This document shows, piece by piece, positions 4,094 to 55,644 of a DNA stretch of 64,000 bases. The stretch comes from Candidatus Micrarchaeia archaeon (lineage in GTDB: Archaea; Micrarchaeota; Micrarchaeia; Anstonellales; Anstonellaceae): the NCBI GenBank assembly GCA_041663445.1, contig JBAYMR010000001.1:47393-111392 (forward strand), written 5' to 3'. Made by a program: the position numbers and the translations under genes. Every line of letters begins with the position of its first letter. The stretch's first letter is position 1. The notes under the pieces are model-generated. The model ran no database searches. It was not told where the DNA came from and saw nothing but the letters and a program-made list of their open reading frames with translations.

Positions 4094-4540
4094 TTATGAA
4101 TACCTGCCCAATACGTTTTTCGTCCCGCGCTGCACGCCCGCCACCCCGAAGGGGGAGGTGTAGGTTATGTTCAGTGAAAAGTCATAGTATGCCCCTGCCG
4201 TGCCCGCCTGGGCCCCGCTGAACCGCAAGGTCTTCGTCTCGCCCGGCCCGAAAGTGGTGGCAGTGGTGTAGGCGCCGCTTGAGATGCTCAGGCGCGTCAT
4301 CGTGTATGTGCCTATGGCGTCCTTGTTCTGGACCACCAGCGTCACCGTGCCGTTTGCAAGCACGGTGCGCTCAAGGATGCCGAAAGGCCGCGCCTGCCCG
4401 CGCCAGTATTCGTCGGACTGCGAGATTTTCGCGTCCGATGTCACGCTGGGCACAAAGCCCACGAGGGATACGCCTATCAGCGCCACAAGGAGCACGACGG
4501 CCATTATGACGAGATATTCAGTGGCCCCTTGCGCGCGCAT
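4094..4540 (-). CDS. Pilin-like protein with an archaeal class-III (type IV prepilin-like) signal peptide
   Basis: MRAQG/ATEYLVIMAVVLLVALIGVSLVGFVP: short basic leader, invariant Glu at +3/+4, then a hydrophobic helix and a Thr/Gly-rich beta-rich domain. Paralog at 32873..33358. The annotated ORF extends to 4594, but the likely start is the internal Met at 4540; a TATA-like box sits at 4595-4602. Confidence 0.7.
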   Translation of the reverse strand: MRAQGATEYLVIMAVVLLVALIGVSLVGFVPSVTSDAKISQSDEYWRGQARPFGILERTVLANGTVTLVVQNKDAIGTYTMTRLSISSGAYTTATTFGPGETKTLRFSGAQAGTAGAYYDFSLNITYTSPFGVAGVQRGTKNVLGRYS

Positions 4541-4602: not shown

Positions 4603-4666
4603 TTCGTTGCACTGGGCAGGGGGGATTGGAAAGAAGAAACAGGGCGGGATTGCAGGATTTTGCCCG

Positions 4667-4820
4667 AACCCCAACATGCAGGTTTTTAGTGGGATCGTAG
4701 GGATTTGCGTCGTTGCCGCTTCGCGACAACTTTGCATCCAAAAGCTTTGCTTTTGTCTGACCCCTAACATGCAGGTTTTCAGTGGGATCGTAGGGATTTG
4801 AACCCTAACATGCAGGTTTT
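4667..4820. repeat. 41-bp direct repeat x2 plus a truncated third copy (CRISPR-like mini-array?)
   Basis: aaccccaacatgcaggtttttagtgggatcgtagggatttg (4667-4707) and acccctaacatgcaggttttcagtgggatcgtagggatttg (4760-4800) are separated by a unique 52-bp segment. A third copy, aaccctaacatgcaggtttt (4801-4820), directly abuts copy 2 and then diverges. No cas genes in the window. Confidence 0.5.
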
Positions 4821-4852
4821 TTCTTTCCCCGAAGGGAGATCTGGAGCCTGCC

Positions 4853-4895
4853 GCGCTACCAAGTTACGCCACGACCCCCTATTTAACTACTTTTT
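4853..4895. repeat. Dispersed repeat family, copy A
   Basis: gcgctaccaagttacgccacgaccccctatttaactac shares aagttacgccacgaccccct with 15384-15403 and resembles gcgctaccgggttatgacgtg in copies C and D. Confidence 0.45.
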
Positions 4896-5506: not shown

Positions 5507-6478
5507 CTATCCCTGCGGGAAATAGCAGAACCTGTATTCCTTCACTATTCGCACCCATGCCTGCGCGCTCATTATCCTGTGGAAGCGCCTCACCACGGAC
5601 TGCGTGATTTCGCGCACCTCGCGCTCGCCGCTCGCGCGCACGTCGTACATCAGCTCGTACTCCGACACTATGCGCATGACGCGGCGCACCTGCGGCATGG
5701 AAAGCAGGAAGGAGGAAACTGCGCGCACGTTCTCATCCGTGGGTGCTGACAGGTTGAGGAGCACGCGGTAGTGGCGGAAGCCCTCCATCTCGCTCCCCAG
5801 GTTTATGGTATAGCCCCTGATTATCTTGCGCTCCTGAAGCGACTTGAGGTGGTAGCGCGCAGTTTCGGGCGGCATGCCAGTTCGCTTCCCAAGGTCAGAA
5901 TAGGAGATGCGCGTGTTGCTGGCAACCGCGGAAAGGATTTCCCTGTCCTTCTGGCTTATCCTTTCCTGGCTGCGCTGCACGCCAAGCGTCACGGGATGCT
6001 TGGGCGAATCGGAGCTGCTGGAAAATGCGCGCGGCACCACGGTGGTCGTGCTCAGATGTACTGCCCAGTGCATGGATTGCACAATGCCCCGTAGGATGCG
6101 GTGCAGCCTCAGGCTTTTCCTGGCAAGGTCCGCGGTCCCTTCGCTTGCAATGCTCAGGGAAAGGTCCCACTCTCCCTCGCACTTCAAAAGCGAGAGGACG
6201 CCAAGCGAGAGAAGCTCGGATGCCACCTGCTTCTCCTTTCTGGTCGACACCGGCTTGAGCTTGAAGTTGAAGATATGGACGCCGTAGCCGACGCGTTCGC
6301 AGTCGATGAGCGCGGCAAACGAGCCGATGCTTCCGTGTGCAAGCAGCGAGGCTATGCGGCTCGAGGCGTTCTGCTTTGACACGCGGGCACTTGCCGCAAT
6401 CCTGGAAATCGGCTGGCGGCTGTCGCAGAGCAGCTGCGCAAGGATTTTGCGGTCTGTGGCGCTAAGTTCCCCTCCCAT
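5507..6478 (-). CDS. Lrp/AsnC-family transcriptional regulator, tandem-duplicated (two HTH-AsnC units)
   Basis: Two repeats of HTH plus RAM-like regions: ATDRKILAQLLCDSRQPISRIAASARVSKQNASSRIASL... and QKDREILSAVASNTRISYSDLGKRTGMPPETARYHLKSLQERKII... Confidence 0.7.
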   Translation of the reverse strand: MGGELSATDRKILAQLLCDSRQPISRIAASARVSKQNASSRIASLLAHGSIGSFAALIDCERVGYGVHIFNFKLKPVSTRKEKQVASELLSLGVLSLLKCEGEWDLSLSIASEGTADLARKSLRLHRILRGIVQSMHWAVHLSTTTVVPRAFSSSSDSPKHPVTLGVQRSQERISQKDREILSAVASNTRISYSDLGKRTGMPPETARYHLKSLQERKIIRGYTINLGSEMEGFRHYRVLLNLSAPTDENVRAVSSFLLSMPQVRRVMRIVSEYELMYDVRASGEREVREITQSVVRRFHRIMSAQAWVRIVKEYRFCYFPQG

Positions 6479-6905: not shown

Positions 6906-7988
6906 TTGGAAAATGAAATTGTTGCACAGGCGGCAGGATTTGACGCGGGCAGCCTGCTGCCTTTCCTGCTGGCGCTTGCTGTTGCGCTTGTCGCGGCAAA
7001 AGTTGCAAACGCCCTGGTGAAAAAGGCGGCGAAAATGCTCGTTGGCAGGACAAAGACAAAACTGGATGATTTCCTGCTTGAAGCGCTTGACCTGCCGCTT
7101 ACGATATTCTTCACAGGTGTTGGCATATATGCTGCCGCTTTTCTTGCTGGGCTGGACACGCATCCCCTTTTCGGGTTTGCCGCAAAGGAGTTTGTGATAT
7201 TGGCGGGCGCTTATGCCGTGTATCAAGCGTTTTCAGCGCTGCTGCGCTGGTATGTGGAAGAGGCTGCAGCTGCAAGGAACCTGCCCTTGGCGGACCTCCA
7301 GTCCACGCTGCGCAGGGTGGGCGCGCTTTTCATCTTCTCGATTGCAGTCATAATGGCTCTGGACACTGCAGGCATCGAAGTGAACCCGCTTATCGCCTCG
7401 CTTGGCATCGCAGGCCTTGCCGTGGCGCTTGCCTTCCAGGACACGCTTGGCAACTTTTTTGCAGGCATCACTATTTCCGCAGACAGGCCGGTGCGCGAAG
7501 GGGACTACGTGCAGGTGGAGGGCGGCTATGAGGGATATGTACACAAGATAGGCTGGAGAAGCACGCAGATTCGCGCGCTTGCCAACAACATCGTGGTGGT
7601 GCCAAACTCCAAGCTTGCAGCAAGCATCATCACCAACTACTATGCTCCCGACAAGTCGCTCGCAGTCATTGTGCCAGTGTCAGTTGCATACAGTTCTGAC
7701 CTGAAAAAGGTGGAGCGCATCACCTGCCAGGTGGCATCTGATGCCCAGAAAAGGGTAAAGGGAGCATCGAAGGACTTCGAGCCTTTCATACGCTATGGGG
7801 CATTTGGCGATTCCGGCATATCCTTCAGCGCCATCCTCCGCGCGAATGAGTATGTTGACAGGTACCTGCTCACGCACGAGTTCATCAAGGCGCTGCACGC
7901 GCGCTATGCAAAGGAAGGCATCGAAATACCGTATCCCAAGCGGCACGTGTATGTGGAAAATCTGGGCAAGCGGAGGGGAATGAAGTGA
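6906..7988 (+). CDS. Small-conductance mechanosensitive channel (MscS family)
   Basis: N-terminal TM helices, the conserved MscS pore/beta-domain region GIAGLAVALAFQDTLGNFFAGI..., and a C-terminal cytoplasmic domain. The ORF caller used a TTG start. Confidence 0.85.
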   Translation: MENEIVAQAAGFDAGSLLPFLLALAVALVAAKVANALVKKAAKMLVGRTKTKLDDFLLEALDLPLTIFFTGVGIYAAAFLAGLDTHPLFGFAAKEFVILAGAYAVYQAFSALLRWYVEEAAAARNLPLADLQSTLRRVGALFIFSIAVIMALDTAGIEVNPLIASLGIAGLAVALAFQDTLGNFFAGITISADRPVREGDYVQVEGGYEGYVHKIGWRSTQIRALANNIVVVPNSKLAASIITNYYAPDKSLAVIVPVSVAYSSDLKKVERITCQVASDAQKRVKGASKDFEPFIRYGAFGDSGISFSAILRANEYVDRYLLTHEFIKALHARYAKEGIEIPYPKRHVYVENLGKRRGMK

Positions 7989-33695: not shown

Positions 33696-34100
33696 ATGTC
33701 TTCAAGCTCGGTTGCGCGCATAGACGAAAAGGGCAGGCTCATCGTGCCCGCCGCCTACAGGGAGGTTTTGAACCTCAATGAGAACAGCAACGTGCTCCTT
33801 ACGCTTGACACTTCGAAAAATTGCCTTGTCCTGCTCCCATTCGCCTCGGCAGGCGACGAGCTTTACAGGGTGGGCGTGGCGCTCTCGGACGCGCCTGGCT
33901 CGCTTTCGCGCCTGCTTATCCTGCTTGCAAAGTCCGGCGTTGATTTGGTGCAGTCGGAGTCCATCGCCTCGGACAGGGGCAGGAGCGCGCAATGGCATGC
34001 CACGGTGGACCTGTCCAAGTGCAAGGCAAAGCCAGCGGCGATAAGGGAGCTTCTTCTTAGGGAAAAGGTGGCGACGAAAGTGGAAATCGCGCAGGTCTGA
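33696..34100 (+). CDS. AbrB/MazE (SpoVT-AbrB) DNA-binding domain + ACT domain protein
   Basis: N-terminal IDEKGRLIVPAAYREVLNL (swapped-hairpin AbrB-like). C-terminal YRVGVALSDAPGSLSRLLILLAKSGVDLV (ACT-like). Confidence 0.6.
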   Translation: MSSSSVARIDEKGRLIVPAAYREVLNLNENSNVLLTLDTSKNCLVLLPFASAGDELYRVGVALSDAPGSLSRLLILLAKSGVDLVQSESIASDRGRSAQWHATVDLSKCKAKPAAIRELLLREKVATKVEIAQV

Positions 34101-50365: not shown

Positions 50366-50536
50366 ACCACCTGCACCACTTATGCACACTTCAATATTTA
50401 AAGCGAGCGCCGGAGCCTGCAAAATGCGCATCCGCTGCCAAAAATGGCCTGAGGGCGCTTTTTTATTGCTTTCCCTGCTTATCTCCCTTGCGCTCCCATC
50501 CAGGGGAATCAGTCCCCTGCCTGGAAGCGCTAACGC

Positions 50537-50704
50537 GCTCCCATAGTCTAGTGGCTGACTTCGGTGCAATTGTGCACCGGCGCGAGCCGGACAACCCGGT
50601 CAAGGACGGAGCCCTCTCATGGCCCTTTTCGACGTATCGAAAAGCGTTCACGGAAATTTTTCCTGAGAAAGGCTCTAACTCGGGTTCAAATCCCGATGGG
50701 AGCG
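50537..50704 (+). tRNA. tRNA-Glu(CUC)-like gene with two putative intervening sequences (pseudogene not excluded)
   Basis: 5' GCUCCCA-UA-GUCUAGUGGCUGAC (acceptor + D arm) and 3' UCGGG-UUCAAAU-CCCGA-UGGGAGC-G (T arm + acceptor) pair perfectly. An internal anticodon arm GAGCC-CUCUCA at 50609-19 pairs with GGCUC at 50671-75. Intervening sequences: 50561-50608, and 50620-50669 at the canonical 37/38 site. CUCA can pair with the intron 3' UGAG, leaving an AAA bulge (BHB-like). Confidence 0.4.
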
Positions 50705-50835
50705 TTTTATTTTTTCTTCAGAAAAAATGAAACAGGTTGTGAGGCATCACGACTGCGAATTTTCTTTTTTTACTTTTAACACCTCAACGACGTAATACAC
50801 TTTGAACAATTCTTTATATACAGCAGCCGCGATAG

Positions 50836-52617
50836 TTGAGCATGCCTACTCCAGGTATGGTTCAGATTGACCCTGTGCAGAGACAGACGTCTGCCACAGC
50901 AGATGTGTTTGATGCACGGCAGACAGCGCTTCAGGCGAAGCAGGATGTCAACCTTCTTATTGAGAAGTTGAAAAGCGAACTTCAATCATCCAAGCACGAA
51001 AGTCTTCAGATATTAAGCTCATTTCCAATCCCGATAAAAAAAGGACACGAATGGGAAATGAGGGAGACCTATCGTAAGGCAGCCTGCGATGCCAATGACC
51101 TTCTGAGAAAGGAGGGAGCGCCCATTGCCATCTGGCTAGAGGATGTTGGTGACAAGTTCCATATTGTGACTGGAAGATATGAGGAGCGAACGCCCAAAGT
51201 AATGCAAATTGAGGAAAAGATGCCGCAGGTCGTGCAGAGCGAAGAAGGTGGAAAGGCAGTTCCAGCAGTCACGCCCATATTCGACTTGACCGAAACTGAT
51301 AGAAATGAACTTTGTGTCACAAATGAGGTGCTGGCAGGCATGAAGCCCAATCAGTTGACAGATGGGCAATGGAAAGTGCTGAACAAGATTATGGATAAAA
51401 CAGCGGAGCACATATATGGGAAGAATTTCGACAAGCTTTCACAAGGCAGGAAAATCAATGTGCTGCGACACATATTCTCTCCCCACACCGATGAGGGAAA
51501 GGAACTTGGGTTTACATATTCTGGGAGCGCCGAGTTGAAAATAGCTGCGGAAACATTATCTTCTCTGAAGGGAGACTGTGATGACTTCTCGTTCTTGTAC
51601 ATAGCTTGCGCAAACCGCCTGGATGGCGAAGGCAGGCTGCATGTAAAAGACATAAAGCTGGCAGTTGTTGACTATTACGACCCAAAGAACAATGAAATCG
51701 GGGCGCATGCAAATGTCTTTCCCGTCGTCCTCAACAAGGTTGGCGGAAAGAGGGCAAAGATATTCCTTGTCGATTTGACTTTCAACACATCTACAACGCC
51801 GTTAGGACATAAGGAAAATGAGATTGATGCGAAAAACGACAAGTTCAGAGACAAATTCCTTGGACACATGAACGAGAGCAGGGAAGAAAAGAAAATCGAG
51901 GTAATGGAATTGCGCCTCTATGACGGTTTCACGGGGCTGCTTGCCTACTATTACACAAACAATGGGGCGACTCTTGCAAAGGAAGCTAAAGATATTGGCA
52001 AAAACTCCGAGAAGCAGATCGATGCACTCATGAAACTCGATGAATACGACAAGGTAGTGGCGATTTACCAGGACATAGACAATAAATTTGAGGATGCAAA
52101 GAAAGCCCTCAATGGAGCAATCGAGATTGGAAAAGAGAGCGGCTGCAACTATGGGGATGCGCTTGTTAGGATGGGCATCCTTTACTATGGACAGGGCAGC
52201 AATCTGATAAACTGGAGCACGCCACTATCCGCAAGCGGGAAATCGGAGGATGGCACAAAGAAAACAGCGAAAGGCATTGAACTCCACAGCGATTGCTACG
52301 CATATTTCAAAGAAGCGCTCGAACTACCAGACGTCAGTTCATTCGTGTTGAACGAGGGGGCAAAAGTGCTACGCGAGAGCCTGAACTCGGAAGGATATCT
52401 AATCGCAGAACAGATGGTTGTCAAGGCAATCAAGGCAGCACCATTCAAGCCAGAACTCTACGAAACGCTGCTGTCAATCATGAACAAGGAGGGCAAAACC
52501 TCAGAGGCTTTGAAGCTTTTGCAGGAGTATATAAAGGCCCCTGGGCTGCCTCCAGAAGTCAAGAAAATGATTGATGGTTTGATAACCGAGGCAGCGGGAG
52601 TACCCACTGAGCACTAG
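50836..52617 (+). CDS. Transglutaminase-like cysteine-protease-fold domain + C-terminal TPR-like helical repeats (593 aa), in a low-GC island
   Basis: Cys-His-Asp arrangement typical of the transglutaminase-like core: GDCDDFSFLYIACANRL ... GAHANVFPVV ... IFLVDLT. C-terminal amphipathic helical repeats. Local GC ~45% versus ~60% on the contig. Confidence 0.5.
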   Translation: MSMPTPGMVQIDPVQRQTSATADVFDARQTALQAKQDVNLLIEKLKSELQSSKHESLQILSSFPIPIKKGHEWEMRETYRKAACDANDLLRKEGAPIAIWLEDVGDKFHIVTGRYEERTPKVMQIEEKMPQVVQSEEGGKAVPAVTPIFDLTETDRNELCVTNEVLAGMKPNQLTDGQWKVLNKIMDKTAEHIYGKNFDKLSQGRKINVLRHIFSPHTDEGKELGFTYSGSAELKIAAETLSSLKGDCDDFSFLYIACANRLDGEGRLHVKDIKLAVVDYYDPKNNEIGAHANVFPVVLNKVGGKRAKIFLVDLTFNTSTTPLGHKENEIDAKNDKFRDKFLGHMNESREEKKIEVMELRLYDGFTGLLAYYYTNNGATLAKEAKDIGKNSEKQIDALMKLDEYDKVVAIYQDIDNKFEDAKKALNGAIEIGKESGCNYGDALVRMGILYYGQGSNLINWSTPLSASGKSEDGTKKTAKGIELHSDCYAYFKEALELPDVSSFVLNEGAKVLRESLNSEGYLIAEQMVVKAIKAAPFKPELYETLLSIMNKEGKTSEALKLLQEYIKAPGLPPEVKKMIDGLITEAAGVPTEH

Positions 52618-52623
52618 AGGGCG

Positions 52624-53238
52624 CTATCTTGGGACTGGTTCAGTTACTTTCTGGTTTCTCAGATGCTTGAGTTCCTGCCATTCTTCAAGCAATGCCTTCA
52701 CTTCCGCTGGTGTGTGGATTTTGAAGGCGTTCGATGGGGTTGCGCCCTTGTCGCTGAGAAAAGCAACACGCAATTCGTTCTTTGCATTCTCCCAGCGGCG
52801 CTCAAGTTCCACCCTATCTTCCTTGGAATATGAATTGAGGACTCTACCAGACAGACCGAAAGGCGGAGTGTAGTTTTCTGCATCCAGCCAAGCAGCACGG
52901 AAAGCGCCTAGCTCTGGTTTTTTCTCTGAAAATGTCTTGTCACTTAGCGAATTGGAATACGGCATGTAATGTTCAAGCGTCCTTACATCTGGAATTACCA
53001 GTTTAGGGATAGTGTCCATCGTCTTTGTCGTGTCTTTCTTCGCCTGTTCTATTGACTTGAAAGCCCCGGTTTGCATCAACAGCACGGTGTCACCCCCTTT
53101 TTTTGTTCCTTTGTTCTGCGAATATACCTTGGTAAATATGCCCGAAGTAAGTAAAAAAGCACCTGTAAGGAAGATAGCAGCGCCCACTCTGGAGACATGA
53201 CCTGTTTTTTGCCTGAAATGAGCCGTCTTGACGTGCAT
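52624..53238 (-). CDS. Hypothetical secreted/membrane-anchored protein (204 aa), low-GC island
   Basis: N-terminal hydrophobic segment VGAAIFLTGAFLLTSGIF; convergent with the transglutaminase-like gene. Confidence 0.4.
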   Translation of the reverse strand: MHVKTAHFRQKTGHVSRVGAAIFLTGAFLLTSGIFTKVYSQNKGTKKGGDTVLLMQTGAFKSIEQAKKDTTKTMDTIPKLVIPDVRTLEHYMPYSNSLSDKTFSEKKPELGAFRAAWLDAENYTPPFGLSGRVLNSYSKEDRVELERRWENAKNELRVAFLSDKGATPSNAFKIHTPAEVKALLEEWQELKHLRNQKVTEPVPR

Positions 53239-53392
53239 GCATCTATTCTGTCTTCTGGGCTATATAAAGGTAATTTCTCAGAAGAAAATCAGCACATCAC
53301 CCACTGAGAGTTTTTATTTTTTTACCCGATTTCTCACTAAATAAAACTATATTTAAAAAGGCTTCGCAACAGGAAACGATTCAGGTGAAAAG

Positions 53393-53785
53393 ATGGCGAC
53401 GCTTGAAACAAAACCGCTAGAAAAAACCCTGCCGATGGCATTCAAGGTTTCAGGGAACAGGTACCTGGTGATGGCGAAATCCAACGATGACGGGAGGCTG
53501 AGGGTTTCAGCTTTCATAGGGAAGATACTGGACAAGGAACCGCCGCTGAAGGAAGGCGAACGGATATACTGGATTGCCGCCGGGCAGATGGACGACGGAA
53601 GGAAAGACAGCCCGAGAAAAGGGCACATATTCTACAAGGGAGTTGACGACAAAGAGGCTGCCGGCGTATGGAACGCAATTGATTCCGACAGGGCACGAGT
53701 AGACTGGGCATTCATCTCCAGAGTGCTTAAGCCAGGGACTCCGATAACTCCGTTTGTGGAGCTGAGCAAGGCCGGAAAGAACTAA
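53393..53785 (+). CDS. Hypothetical protein (130 aa)
   Basis: ORF only; normal contig GC. Confidence 0.4.
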   Translation: MATLETKPLEKTLPMAFKVSGNRYLVMAKSNDDGRLRVSAFIGKILDKEPPLKEGERIYWIAAGQMDDGRKDSPRKGHIFYKGVDDKEAAGVWNAIDSDRARVDWAFISRVLKPGTPITPFVELSKAGKN

Positions 53786-53821
53786 GGCGTGCGTCGCAGA
53801 TGCCAGAATGAAGGTGCTTAA

Positions 53822-54547
53822 ATGGTCAATGCCCCAAGTATAGTAAGGAAAGGGATGGTGAACGACAAGGAATCGGCAGGGGACGCGGCGCTTGATTCGT
53901 TCCACAAGGTGATGAAAAAGATGCCCCGGCTGCGCGAGGGCAAGGCAGGGGATGGCAGCGCATGGCTGGCAGGGGCCTGCAAGGATAGGGGCGCGGGCTT
54001 TGGCATGGTCGTGGCGGAGGGGCCGCAAATCATCTCGGCAATCAGGCTTGGTGGCGGGAATGCAACCGCATTTTCCAAGCGCGGGATTTCGAAAATCGGG
54101 GAAATCCATGAATGCCGCACCTACTGCGTGGCTACGGTGGAAGGCGTGGAATTCGCCTCGAAGGGGGCGTTCTGGATGTGGTCGGCGTCAAAAGACTACC
54201 ACGACATATGCGGGCACCTCAACGGGCTGCAGGCATATGACGCAACCGGCGGGGTTGACATCGCGATTATTGGCGGCGCGGCTGAACTCCTGAAGGGAAG
54301 CGTGCAGACAAAGCATGGCAATTACAGCTTCAGCTTCTTCGCAAGGAATTTTGCCGAGGGCAAAAAGGCAATCAGGTGCGACTATTCTATGCTGCTTGAG
54401 GGGGAGAACGTCTGGAACGCCGCTCAGGCGCAGCAGGACGGCACGCTGGAAAAAATATTCAACAAGATGCGGGCGGCTGCGAAGAAAATGTTCCCGAGCG
54501 AAATGTGGGGGCAGGTAAAGCTGGAAAACGTGATTGGCGCGCCCTAG
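53822..54547 (+). CDS. Hypothetical protein (241 aa)
   Basis: ORF only; several Cys/His (HECRTYC, HDICGH). Confidence 0.4.
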   Translation: MVNAPSIVRKGMVNDKESAGDAALDSFHKVMKKMPRLREGKAGDGSAWLAGACKDRGAGFGMVVAEGPQIISAIRLGGGNATAFSKRGISKIGEIHECRTYCVATVEGVEFASKGAFWMWSASKDYHDICGHLNGLQAYDATGGVDIAIIGGAAELLKGSVQTKHGNYSFSFFARNFAEGKKAIRCDYSMLLEGENVWNAAQAQQDGTLEKIFNKMRAAAKKMFPSEMWGQVKLENVIGAP

Positions 54548-55644
54548 CGCACGTATTCTTCCGCCGCTTTCACGATGTTCTGGAAGAAGCGCAGGCTGTT
54601 TTTCTCGTAGGAGATTCCCGCAGTGAAGCGCGGGAACTGCGTCCTGTACATGCTGCATTCGGGGTGGGGCATGAGCCCCAGAATCTTGCCCGTCCTGTCG
54701 CAGATGCCCGCGATGTCATAAGGTGAGCCGTTCGGGTTGGCAGGGTAGCCTGGGGAGTCGGACATCTTTTCATCGGTGTAGCGCAGCGCCACCATGCCCT
54801 GCCTCTTGAGCGAGGCAAGAAGCTCGGAGTCGCGCGGAACGAACTGCCCCTCGCCGTGCCTGACAGGGCACTGGATGAATGATACGCCCTCGAAGTATTT
54901 GCACACCGACTTTTGCGGCTTGAGGTAGACCCAGCGGTCCTCGAACCTGCCGCTCTTGTTGAACGTGAGCGTGGACTCCTGGGAAGACGAGCCGGACAGG
55001 TTCGGCAGCGCGCCAAGCTTCACCAGTGTCTGGAACCCGTTGCACACGCCGAGCATTGGCTTGCCGGATGACACGAACTCGTCGAACTGCGCCCGGAACG
55101 TGCTCTTGAGCTTGTTGGAAAGCACGCGCCCGCCAGCGATGTCATCGCCGAACGACCAGCCGCCGGGTATTGCGAATATCTCGTAGTGGGACAGCTTTTC
55201 CCTGCCCGATGAAATGTCCGAGAAGTGCACTATCTTCGCATCGGCCCCTGCAAGGCAGAATGCGTGCGCAAGCTCAGCCTCGGCATTCAGGCCAAAGCCG
55301 GCGAGCACGATGCAGCGCGGCCTGCGCTTTTCCGCTGCGGACGGCAAAGCATGCACGGCTGCAGTGCGCCTTTGTTTCGCAGGGGCACTGGCCGGCTTTT
55401 TCGCAGCGCCCGCCCCGGATGGCTTTTTCGCATTTGCCGCCCTTGCCTTTGCTTTTGCCGCCATCATCTTCACCGTCTTTTTCTGCGCGCGCCGTTTGGC
55501 CGCCATATTTTTCGCCGAGGGCTTGGCTTTTTTATTCGCCGCCCCGCCCGCCATCTTCTTCACTGCCACTTTGGTTTTTTTCTTCGCTGGGGGCTTGGCT
55601 TTTTTCCTTGCAGTTCCCCTGCCCGCTGTTTTCCCTGATGCCAT
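54544..55644 (-). CDS. purQ: Phosphoribosylformylglycinamidine synthase subunit PurQ (glutaminase) with an apparent ~100-aa Lys/Ala-rich N-terminal extension
   Basis: Class-I GATase: CIVLAGFG..., GVCNGFQ catalytic Cys, HPE... C-terminal region. The N-terminal KKAKPPAKKKTK... extension may instead reflect a mis-called start. Confidence 0.8.
   Translation of the reverse strand: MASGKTAGRGTARKKAKPPAKKKTKVAVKKMAGGAANKKAKPSAKNMAAKRRAQKKTVKMMAAKAKARAANAKKPSGAGAAKKPASAPAKQRRTAAVHALPSAAEKRRPRCIVLAGFGLNAEAELAHAFCLAGADAKIVHFSDISSGREKLSHYEIFAIPGGWSFGDDIAGGRVLSNKLKSTFRAQFDEFVSSGKPMLGVCNGFQTLVKLGALPNLSGSSSQESTLTFNKSGRFEDRWVYLKPQKSVCKYFEGVSFIQCPVRHGEGQFVPRDSELLASLKRQGMVALRYTDEKMSDSPGYPANPNGSPYDIAGICDRTGKILGLMPHPECSMYRTQFPRFTAGISYEKNSLRFFQNIVKAAEEYVR

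Follow-up and report, generated by a model that had tools for sequence, protein, structure and literature searches.

Is a 168-nt locus that carries the arms of a tRNA a working tRNA gene, and if so, how could the tRNA be made from it? The locus lies at positions 50537-50704 (+ strand; it reads GCUCCCAUAGUCUAG...GGGUUCAAAUCCCGAUGGGAGCG) of a 64-kb stretch of DNA from a Micrarchaeia archaeon of the DPANN group, and we refer to the whole of that stretch as the window. A first-pass annotation, made from the sequence of the window, had proposed a tRNA-Glu(CUC) gene with two introns and had offered a disrupted pseudogene as the alternative. We are confident that this is a functional, single-locus tRNA-Glu(CUC) gene with a 43-nt intron in the D loop (between tRNA positions 15 and 16), a 50-nt intron in the anticodon loop (between positions 37 and 38), and a leader that would be removed by RNase P. 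The proposed identity and number of introns are borne out by Rfam, by orthologous genes, and by bulge-helix-bulge (BHB) motifs, while the first intron lies at a different site than had been thought.

The tRNA signal at this locus is far beyond chance, given its Rfam score, the z score of its fold, and the identity of its spliced form to an intronless orthologue. In a local scan of 451 nt (50400-50850), the Rfam tRNA model RF00005 matches 50537-50704 from end to end with 38.8 bits (E = 8.7e-07; the gathering score is 29 bits). Model positions 1-71 are fully matched, and the D region and the anticodon loop each contain a large insertion. RNA from the locus folds with -71.9 kcal/mol (z = -4.9 against shuffles). 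Rfam detects the gene only in this local scan: it is filtered out when the whole 64 kb is scanned, and it is not reported there at either gathering or E-value thresholds. ARAGORN misses it too, and reports four other tRNAs from the window. Default detection is so insensitive here that the window could contain further heavily interrupted tRNA genes that escaped notice.

Three of the four arms are where the first-pass annotation had placed them. The acceptor stem has seven perfect pairs, GCUCCCA (50537-50543) with UGGGAGC (50697-50703), and is followed by the discriminator G at 50704. The T arm can be read directly as UCGGG-UUCAAAU-CCCGA. The anticodon arm consists of GAGCC (50609-50613), CUCUCA (50614-50619), a 50-nt insert, A (50670), and GGCUC (50671-50675), and it presents the anticodon CUC with U33 and A37. 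The D arm had been sought within the first 24 nt (GUC/GAC), but the true D stem pairs GUCU (50546-50549) with GGAC (50604-50607). If 50552-50594 and 50620-50669 are excised, then a 75-nt sequence remains, rather than the ~70 nt that had been estimated. ARAGORN identifies this spliced sequence as tRNA-Glu(ctc), with a standard cloverleaf (acceptor, D, anticodon, and T stems of 7, 4, 5, and 5 bp) and an 11-nt D loop, AGCCCGGUCAA. The conserved bases U8, A14, G18 G19, and U33 and the T loop UUCAAAU are all present and can be read directly, and the gene-encoded 3' end lacks CCA. So the covariance score, the cloverleaf, and orthology to uninterrupted genes all place this gene in the tRNA-Glu(CUC) family.

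The uninterrupted genes give the most direct view of the exons. We scanned the 22-nt 3' end of the gene against one genome per species and found many tRNA-Glu genes, mostly in metagenome-assembled genomes (MAGs) of Micrarchaeota and of Nitrosopumilaceae (ammonia-oxidizing Thaumarchaeota). Four of the loci (which we label L005, L032, L084, and L086) are syntenic with the window, with AlaRS, tRNA-Val, tRNA-Glu, and purQ/purL. Across the syntenic loci, coding DNA is 66-74% identical and the tRNA region is 86-87% identical. L005, from a Micrarchaeota MAG, has an uninterrupted 75-nt tRNA-Glu(CUC) that is identical at 75 of 75 positions to the spliced form of our gene; two other intronless genes (L063 and L081) match at 74 of 75. 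Exon 1 (50537-50551) thus corresponds to positions 1-15 of the L005 gene and contains the 5' strand of the acceptor stem, U8 A9, the D-stem strand GUCU, and A14 G15. Exon 2 (50595-50619) corresponds to positions 16-40 and contains the rest of the D loop (CCCGGUCAA), GGAC, G26, GAGCC, and C32 U33 C34 U35 C36 A37, with the anticodon CUC. Exon 3 (50670-50704) corresponds to positions 41-75 and contains A38, GGCUC, the variable loop UAAC, the T arm, the 3' strand of the acceptor stem, and the discriminator G.

Other orthologues carry one, two, or three introns. L032, L084, and L140 have just the D-loop intron; both are present in L086, where the anticodon intron has 125 nt, and in many loci from metagenomes. 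When we scanned metagenomes for any insert of 25-55 nt at 15/16, we found 29 further loci. About 30 orthologous loci have 0 to 3 introns, and the exons around them do not vary. In the metagenome loci, the anticodon intron is absent or has 18, 33-34, 49-50, 71-81, or 122-155 nt. Twelve orthologues (L120, L122, L129, L132, L134, L135, L136, L138, L139, L144, L146, and L148) are interrupted a third time, in the T loop after GGGUUCAAA(U), by an intron of about 42-131 nt; our gene has no such intron. The anticodon stem also varies among the orthologues: pair 27:43 occurs as G-C, G.U, or A-U.

Do the two insertions look like archaeal introns? We used the published description of the BHB motif, in which the first two anticodon bases lie inside the central helix H (PMC4090602), and scanned all pairs of positions for a 4-bp helix H with 3-nt bulges on opposite strands. 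Cleavage is expected after the second nucleotide of each bulge. In what follows, h is the outer helix, h' is the inner (intron-borne) helix, and local position n is the window position minus 50536. Both introns have relaxed BHB motifs with the 4-bp helix as well as both bulges.

For intron 1 (50552-50594), the minimum free energy (MFE) fold, the BHB scans, and counts of base pairs across orthologues lead to a motif of the HBh' type. All four pairs of H form, between GUCU (50546-50549; local 10-13) and GGAC (50589-50592; local 53-56). The bulges are AGU (50550-50552; local 14-16) and AAC (50593-50595; local 57-59), and h' has 4 bp, GGCU (50553-50556) with AGCC (50585-50588). The motif predicts cuts at G15|U16 and A58|C59 in local numbering, which is the 50551/50595 junction, and these are the same phosphodiesters that are implied by the L005 gene. 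Intron 1 is absent from L005, L063, and L081. Where it is present, its 8-bp hairpin covaries: in an alignment of 15 distinct sequences, 98.8% of the cells of the proposed structure are paired, and six pairs show changes on both sides, such as G-C to A-U at 27:42 and 28:41 or the use of C-G, G-C, and U-A at 26:43. The covariation score of 0.311 compares with 0.161 in shuffles (none of 500 reaches the observed score), and sliding the partners gives at most 0.084.

Three other placements of intron boundaries in the D region can be compared with this one. First, the first-pass annotation had proposed an intron of ~48 nt between positions 26 and 27 (50561-50608), together with the 37/38 intron and a tRNA of ~70 nt whose D arm lies within the first 24 nt. 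ARAGORN does accept the 70-nt product as a tRNA-Glu(ctc), with a 3-bp D stem. However, there is no BHB-like motif at those junctions, G18, G19, and A21 would not be in their normal context, and no natural orthologue matches the product, while the product of splicing at 15/16 is exactly the L005 gene. We see next to no chance that the 26/27 model is correct. Second, the Rfam alignment places the insertion after AGUGG (AGUGG|UCAA). We rejected this junction because it has no BHB support and matches no orthologue. Third, a 23-nt intron might be nested within intron 1 (50561|50562 and 50584|50585) and be removed before it, for three introns in all. This nested motif is the top score at the locus in a strict BHB scan (3 of 4 pairs in H, with h of 4 bp and h' of 6 bp). 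Among the 15 distinct orthologous sequences, however, its central helix is just 68% paired; pair 22:44 never forms, and pair 23:43 breaks in three sequences, exactly where 26:43 covaries. The competing continuous hairpin, with 26:43 as CG, GC, or UA, is 98% paired and covarying. We give the nested intron hardly any credence, and we conclude that the first intron has 43 nt and lies at 15/16.

Some tRNA-Glu genes from other DPANN lineages also have introns in the D loop. In Woesearchaeota and Nanoarchaeota MAGs, two tRNA-Glu genes (L070, about 1620-1715, and L091, about 5930-6025) have an intron of 20-21 nt at 15/16. These resemble intron 1 in their HBh' plan, in which the 5' strand of the D stem pairs with a mimic in the intron (GUGU:GCAC), followed by AA and the cut. 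They differ in being shorter and in having unrelated sequences. At L012 (about 4385-4525), a D-loop intron of ~65 nt lies a few bases 3' of 15/16.

For intron 2 (50620-50669), the first-pass annotation had the 50 nt, the 37/38 site, and the 50619/50670 junction exactly right. It was also right about the AAA bulge, but not about the central helix, which it took to be CUCA:UGAG; that register is not conserved in the relatives. In the canonical register from our BHB scan, H pairs CUCU (C32-U35, 50614-50617) with UGAG (50664-50667), as C-G, U-A, C-G, and U.U, or three pairs and a mismatch. The outer helix h is the 5-bp anticodon stem, the bulges are CAU (50618-50620, which is C36, A37, and the first U of the intron) and AAA (50668-50670), and h' is GG (50621-50622) with CC (50662-50663). 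This geometry recurs in the orthologous introns, 24 distinct ones that range from 18 to 155 nt. In all 24, C32 and U33 pair with the two intron bases directly 5' of the 3' bulge and at least three of the four pairs of H form. In 15 of them the 3' bulge reads AAA; the others have ACA, CAA, ATA, or TGA there. Helix h' covaries, as AACCC:GGGUU, GACCC:GGGUC, or GGCC:GGCU.

A consensus fold of eight anticodon introns (RNAalifold) contains a conserved ACGGAAAA motif that is paired with U33-U35. As it does not adjoin the 3' site, it cannot serve as the splice motif, and the modeled pairing may be an alternative conformer. We also considered a C/D-box guide RNA within intron 2 and dropped the idea: there is only a CUGA at the 3' end, which is not conserved, and there is no C box. 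The long anticodon introns of 122-155 nt (L086, L120, L121, L126, L134, L139, L143, and L145) share their ends and a AAAAGCGUUCACGGAAAA core with the 50-nt intron of the window. They contain additional GC-rich hairpins, mostly with UUCG-type loops (for example, GCAUUUUGC-UUCG-GCAAAAUGC), and they resemble expansion segments.

We can now return to the idea that this is a pseudogene, that is, a former tRNA-Glu that was inactivated by two insertions and is no longer expressed or spliced. Standard tRNA finders do miss the locus, and the TATA box lies ~70 nt 5' of the annotated start of the gene. But all 75 exon positions are identical to those of an intronless orthologue even though the flanking protein-coding genes are only ~70% identical. 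The insertions lie exactly within BHB motifs, which are kept through compensatory changes as the introns evolve. The locus occupies the syntenic position of tRNA-Glu(CUC), and a promoter and a T-rich tract are present. The junctions that are predicted from structure (50551/50595 and 50619/50670) are those inferred from L005, so we exclude the pseudogene as very improbable. We also considered a split or permuted tRNA gene, but the three exons are colinear within one 168-nt unit.

If the gene is expressed, then where is its promoter? The first-pass annotation was right to find no TATA box at -25 and to place the nearest ~70 nt upstream. This is because the promoter and the gene are separated by a 45-nt module. 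A 10-nt direct repeat that copies the 5' end of the tRNA, GCGCUCCCAU, marks the bounds of the module (50490-50536) and occurs at 50490-50499 and again at 50535-50544. The first copy (GCGCTCCCAT, 50490-50499) contains the 5' strand of the acceptor stem. It is followed by an inner hairpin, CAGGGGA/UCCCCUG (50501-50519); by TGGAAGCGC (50522-50530), which contains a mimic of the 3' strand of the acceptor stem (UGGAAGCGC); and by a linker, UAAC (TAAC in the DNA), plus GC. The real gene starts 45 nt after copy 1, with the second copy of the repeat. The TATA box, TTTTTATT (50460-50467), is 24 nt 5' of copy 1 (from the G at 50492). In orthologues without the module (for example, L133-L135, L137, L139, and L144), a conserved TTTTTAT(A/T) box lies 24-28 nt, and mostly 24 nt, before the tRNA; in the window and at 17 further loci, this same box is instead 24 nt upstream of copy 1, GCGCTCCCAT. 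At the other end of the gene, the T-rich tract TTTTATTTTTTC (50705-50716), which we read directly from the DNA, is likely to be an archaeal terminator.

Among the orthologues, there may be zero, one, or two copies of the module. It is also found in L032, L086, L120-L130, L136, L138, L142, L145, and L147. L120 and L128 have two modules in tandem, so that 110-114 nt lie between the box and the tRNA; L129 has a second module too, and the start of its contig lies 3' of the promoter region. Taken in isolation, the module folds to a hairpin of -24.9 kcal/mol in the window and of -20 to -28 kcal/mol across the loci. Its inner stem covaries, and the divergent copy 1 of L136 (GUUUCCC) is still perfectly paired with its own mimic. 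We searched for the module's sequence elsewhere in the window and found none.

We favor reading the module as a structured 5' leader that would be cut off by RNase P at 50536|50537. Alternatively, it could be a third intervening sequence that is cut out before the ends are ligated, which would make copy 1 the true exon 1. This would be compatible with our explanation of the other two introns. It would fit with the spacing from the TATA box to copy 1, which is the same as from the box to the tRNA in orthologues without the module, and with copy 1 being nearly invariant (in 14 of the 16 promoter-proximal modules that we examined). Also, the real 3' end is paired to copy 1 in the MFE fold of the full-length RNA, and a GCGC:GCGC palindrome could give a 4-bp H with UCC bulges at 4/5. 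However, that palindrome is the sole candidate BHB for excising the module, and it has neither flanking helix, h or h', so we do not consider it usable. The divergent copy 1 of L136 covaries with the mimic, and copy 1 of L125 has a C3 that would mispair. Furthermore, at least one gene for a protein of the RNase P ribonucleoprotein is reported from every archaeal genome that was examined, including DPANN archaea (PMC6380272). Because both routes yield the same mature sequence, cleavage by RNase P is the simpler one, and we think it improbable that the module is an intron. As for a split-tRNA reading of the upstream copy, it has no BHB partner.

The comparisons above show the structure of the gene, its exon junctions, and the conservation and covariation of the motifs. 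With the leader read in this way, we can propose how the tRNA would be made; its transcription start, the order of the steps, and the enzymes are, like the fate of the leader, what we infer. Transcription would begin about 24 nt 3' of the TATA box (50460-50467), at or near copy 1 (about 50490-50492). The first 45 nt would fold as they are transcribed, with copy 1 and the mimic in an outer stem and the inner hairpin within it. This would sequester the decoy 5' strand, which, thanks to the mimic, would not compete for the real 3' end. The body of the tRNA would fold afterwards. EndA, the splicing endonuclease, would then cut the two BHB motifs; an EndA of the broad-specificity epsilon2 type is expected in this phylum. 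The HBh' motif in the D loop (GUCU with the intron-borne mimic GGACAA) would free the 43-nt intron from between G15 and C16, and the motif at the canonical site would free the 50-nt intron from between A37 and A38. An RtcB-type ligase would join the three exons, RNase P would trim the leader at 50536/50537, and CCA would then be added.

Several points weigh against this account. The splicing, the start of transcription, and the fate of the leader are predictions from the sequence. The base pairs of H and h' in intron 1 are invariant, so these helices are conserved but are not proven by covariation, and intron 1 has no outer helix h. In intron 2, H has a U.U mismatch, and h' is merely 2 bp. Part of the conservation of the exons in the metagenome set was imposed by our search pattern, which fixed columns 1-15 and 59-71 of the intron-1 alignment (columns 53-58 were free). 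In the full-length MFE fold, the 3' end pairs with the upstream 5' strand in place of the real one; this is the wrong pairing, so correct folding would depend on kinetics. Finally, Pfam scans of the 57 open reading frames (ORFs) in the 64-kb window found no EndA, RtcB, or RNase P protein, so the type of EndA is assumed from the phylum.

Other tRNA genes in these genomes are also accompanied by pieces of themselves. Upstream of tRNA-Pro in L032 (about 75-140, - strand), there is a 15-nt repeat of the 5' end with two inner hairpins and a CCCCC mimic. Upstream of tRNA-Val, L032 (about 7052-7175) and L139 (about 176-260) have a 5' fragment of the same gene, positions 1-17 or 1-25, and the fragment in L032 has its own TATA box. 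In the window, tRNA-Trp (4782-4878) is followed on its downstream side by partial copies of its 3' half in tandem (4658-4800, - strand), with a unit of ~50 nt that is 90% identical at a distance of 93 nt. The second of these is split by ~57 nt between the 5' strand of the T stem and CAAATCC. The tRNA-Trp copies may be the scars of att sites or decaying tandem duplicates. Given these examples, self-derived partial duplications around tRNA genes seem to be recurrent in this clade. It is possible, though we are doubtful, that the leader module is an instance of a recurrent and previously undescribed kind of tRNA-gene disruption in these Micrarchaeota. If so, self-derived duplications are inserted within the transcription unit and kept as self-sequestering hairpins, and they may feed new introns or require a dedicated processing step.

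We also note a few features of the surrounding DNA. Just downstream of the gene, a 3.8-kb segment (50705-54543) encodes three ORFs of 593, 204, and 241 aa that do not belong to Pfam families, except that the 593-aa ORF has a weak TPR hit. The segment is absent from between tRNA-Glu and purQ in the syntenic L086 and L032, and no att-like repeat of the 3' end of the tRNA turned up when we searched across it. Next to it is a PurQ-like glutamine amidotransferase (54544-55644, - strand), with GATase_5 at residues 108-359 and a Lys/Ala-rich N-terminal extension of ~100 residues. An isolated intergenic hairpin about 130 nt upstream of tRNA-Arg resembles a T arm (GAGG-UUCAAAA-CCUC; 33760-33779, - strand) and may be due to chance or may be a fragment of a tRNA.

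These results matter for annotation. The sole tRNA-Glu(CUC) at the syntenic locus is invisible to default ARAGORN or Rfam searches, so genomes of this clade will seem to lack a glutamate isoacceptor, and tRNA annotation in the clade needs searches that are local and aware of introns. The series of orthologues, with 0-3 introns, an anticodon intron of 18-155 nt, and an optional leader, all around identical exons, is an unusually clean data set for studying the gain, loss, and expansion of BHB introns, and it provides ready substrates for testing the specificity of Micrarchaeota endonucleases.

How does this gene compare with known systems? Although multiple introns might have suggested a lineage like the Thermoproteales, the closest syntenic genomes are MAGs that are labeled as Candidatus Micrarchaeota, Micrarchaeia, or Anstonellaceae. 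The window is about 57% GC and has archaeal genes such as AlaRS, HerA, Rad50, deoxyhypusine synthase, a cupin-type glucose-6-phosphate isomerase, and PurL/PurQ. Thermoproteales have up to three BHB introns per tRNA gene (Sugahara et al. 2008; reviewed in PMC4090602 and PMC4033280), and as in the window, these can lie at non-canonical sites with HBh' or hBH motifs, in which a segment of the intron mimics the partner strand of a tRNA stem. However, the Thermoproteales are hyperthermophilic Crenarchaeota with an (alpha-beta)2 EndA, while the window is from Micrarchaeota.

The nearest precedent for the duplications is a model in which the integration of mobile elements leaves fragments of tRNAs behind (Sugahara et al. 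2012, PMC3293823). There too, related genomes differ in the number of introns at one tRNA locus, and a 5' fragment lies upstream of an intact gene. In that case the fragment is 1.8 kb away, across an element that encodes a recombinase. The copy in the window is 45 nt away, in non-coding DNA, paired to a complementary mimic, and inside the transcription unit.

The closest system is in the same phylum. In Candidatus Micrarchaeum acidiphilum ARMAN-2, 56% of the tRNA genes are reported to be disrupted, including by non-canonical and multiple introns (Fujishima et al. 2011, PMC3239211); its epsilon2 EndA cuts both strict and relaxed BHB motifs in vitro; and broad-specificity EndA is known for both ARMAN-1 and ARMAN-2 (PMC3239211). 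Multi-intron tRNAs are also listed for both of these archaea (PMC4033280). In ARMAN-2, as in the window, there are canonical and non-canonical introns, with relaxed hBH or HBh' motifs that a broad-specificity EndA is expected to cut (PMC3239211; Hirata et al. 2012, PMC3488258). The examples that we compared are from tRNA-Cys, tRNA-Pro, and tRNA-Ile, with introns of 13-25 nt at 59/60, 53/54, and 37/38, unlike the tRNA-Glu(CUC) of the window with its 43-nt intron at 15/16 and its 50-nt anticodon intron. Given these precedents, the mechanism that we propose is the one already known from the phylum, and we infer that it applies to this genome. Since multi-intron tRNAs and a broad EndA were already described for ARMAN-2, the phenomenon itself is not new. 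A leader module is not mentioned in the parts of these accounts that were consulted (PMC3239211, PMC3488258), and it is possibly the sole new element here. With multi-intron tRNAs already established in Micrarchaeota, the parts of interest are this module and the series of orthologues with 0 to 3 introns.

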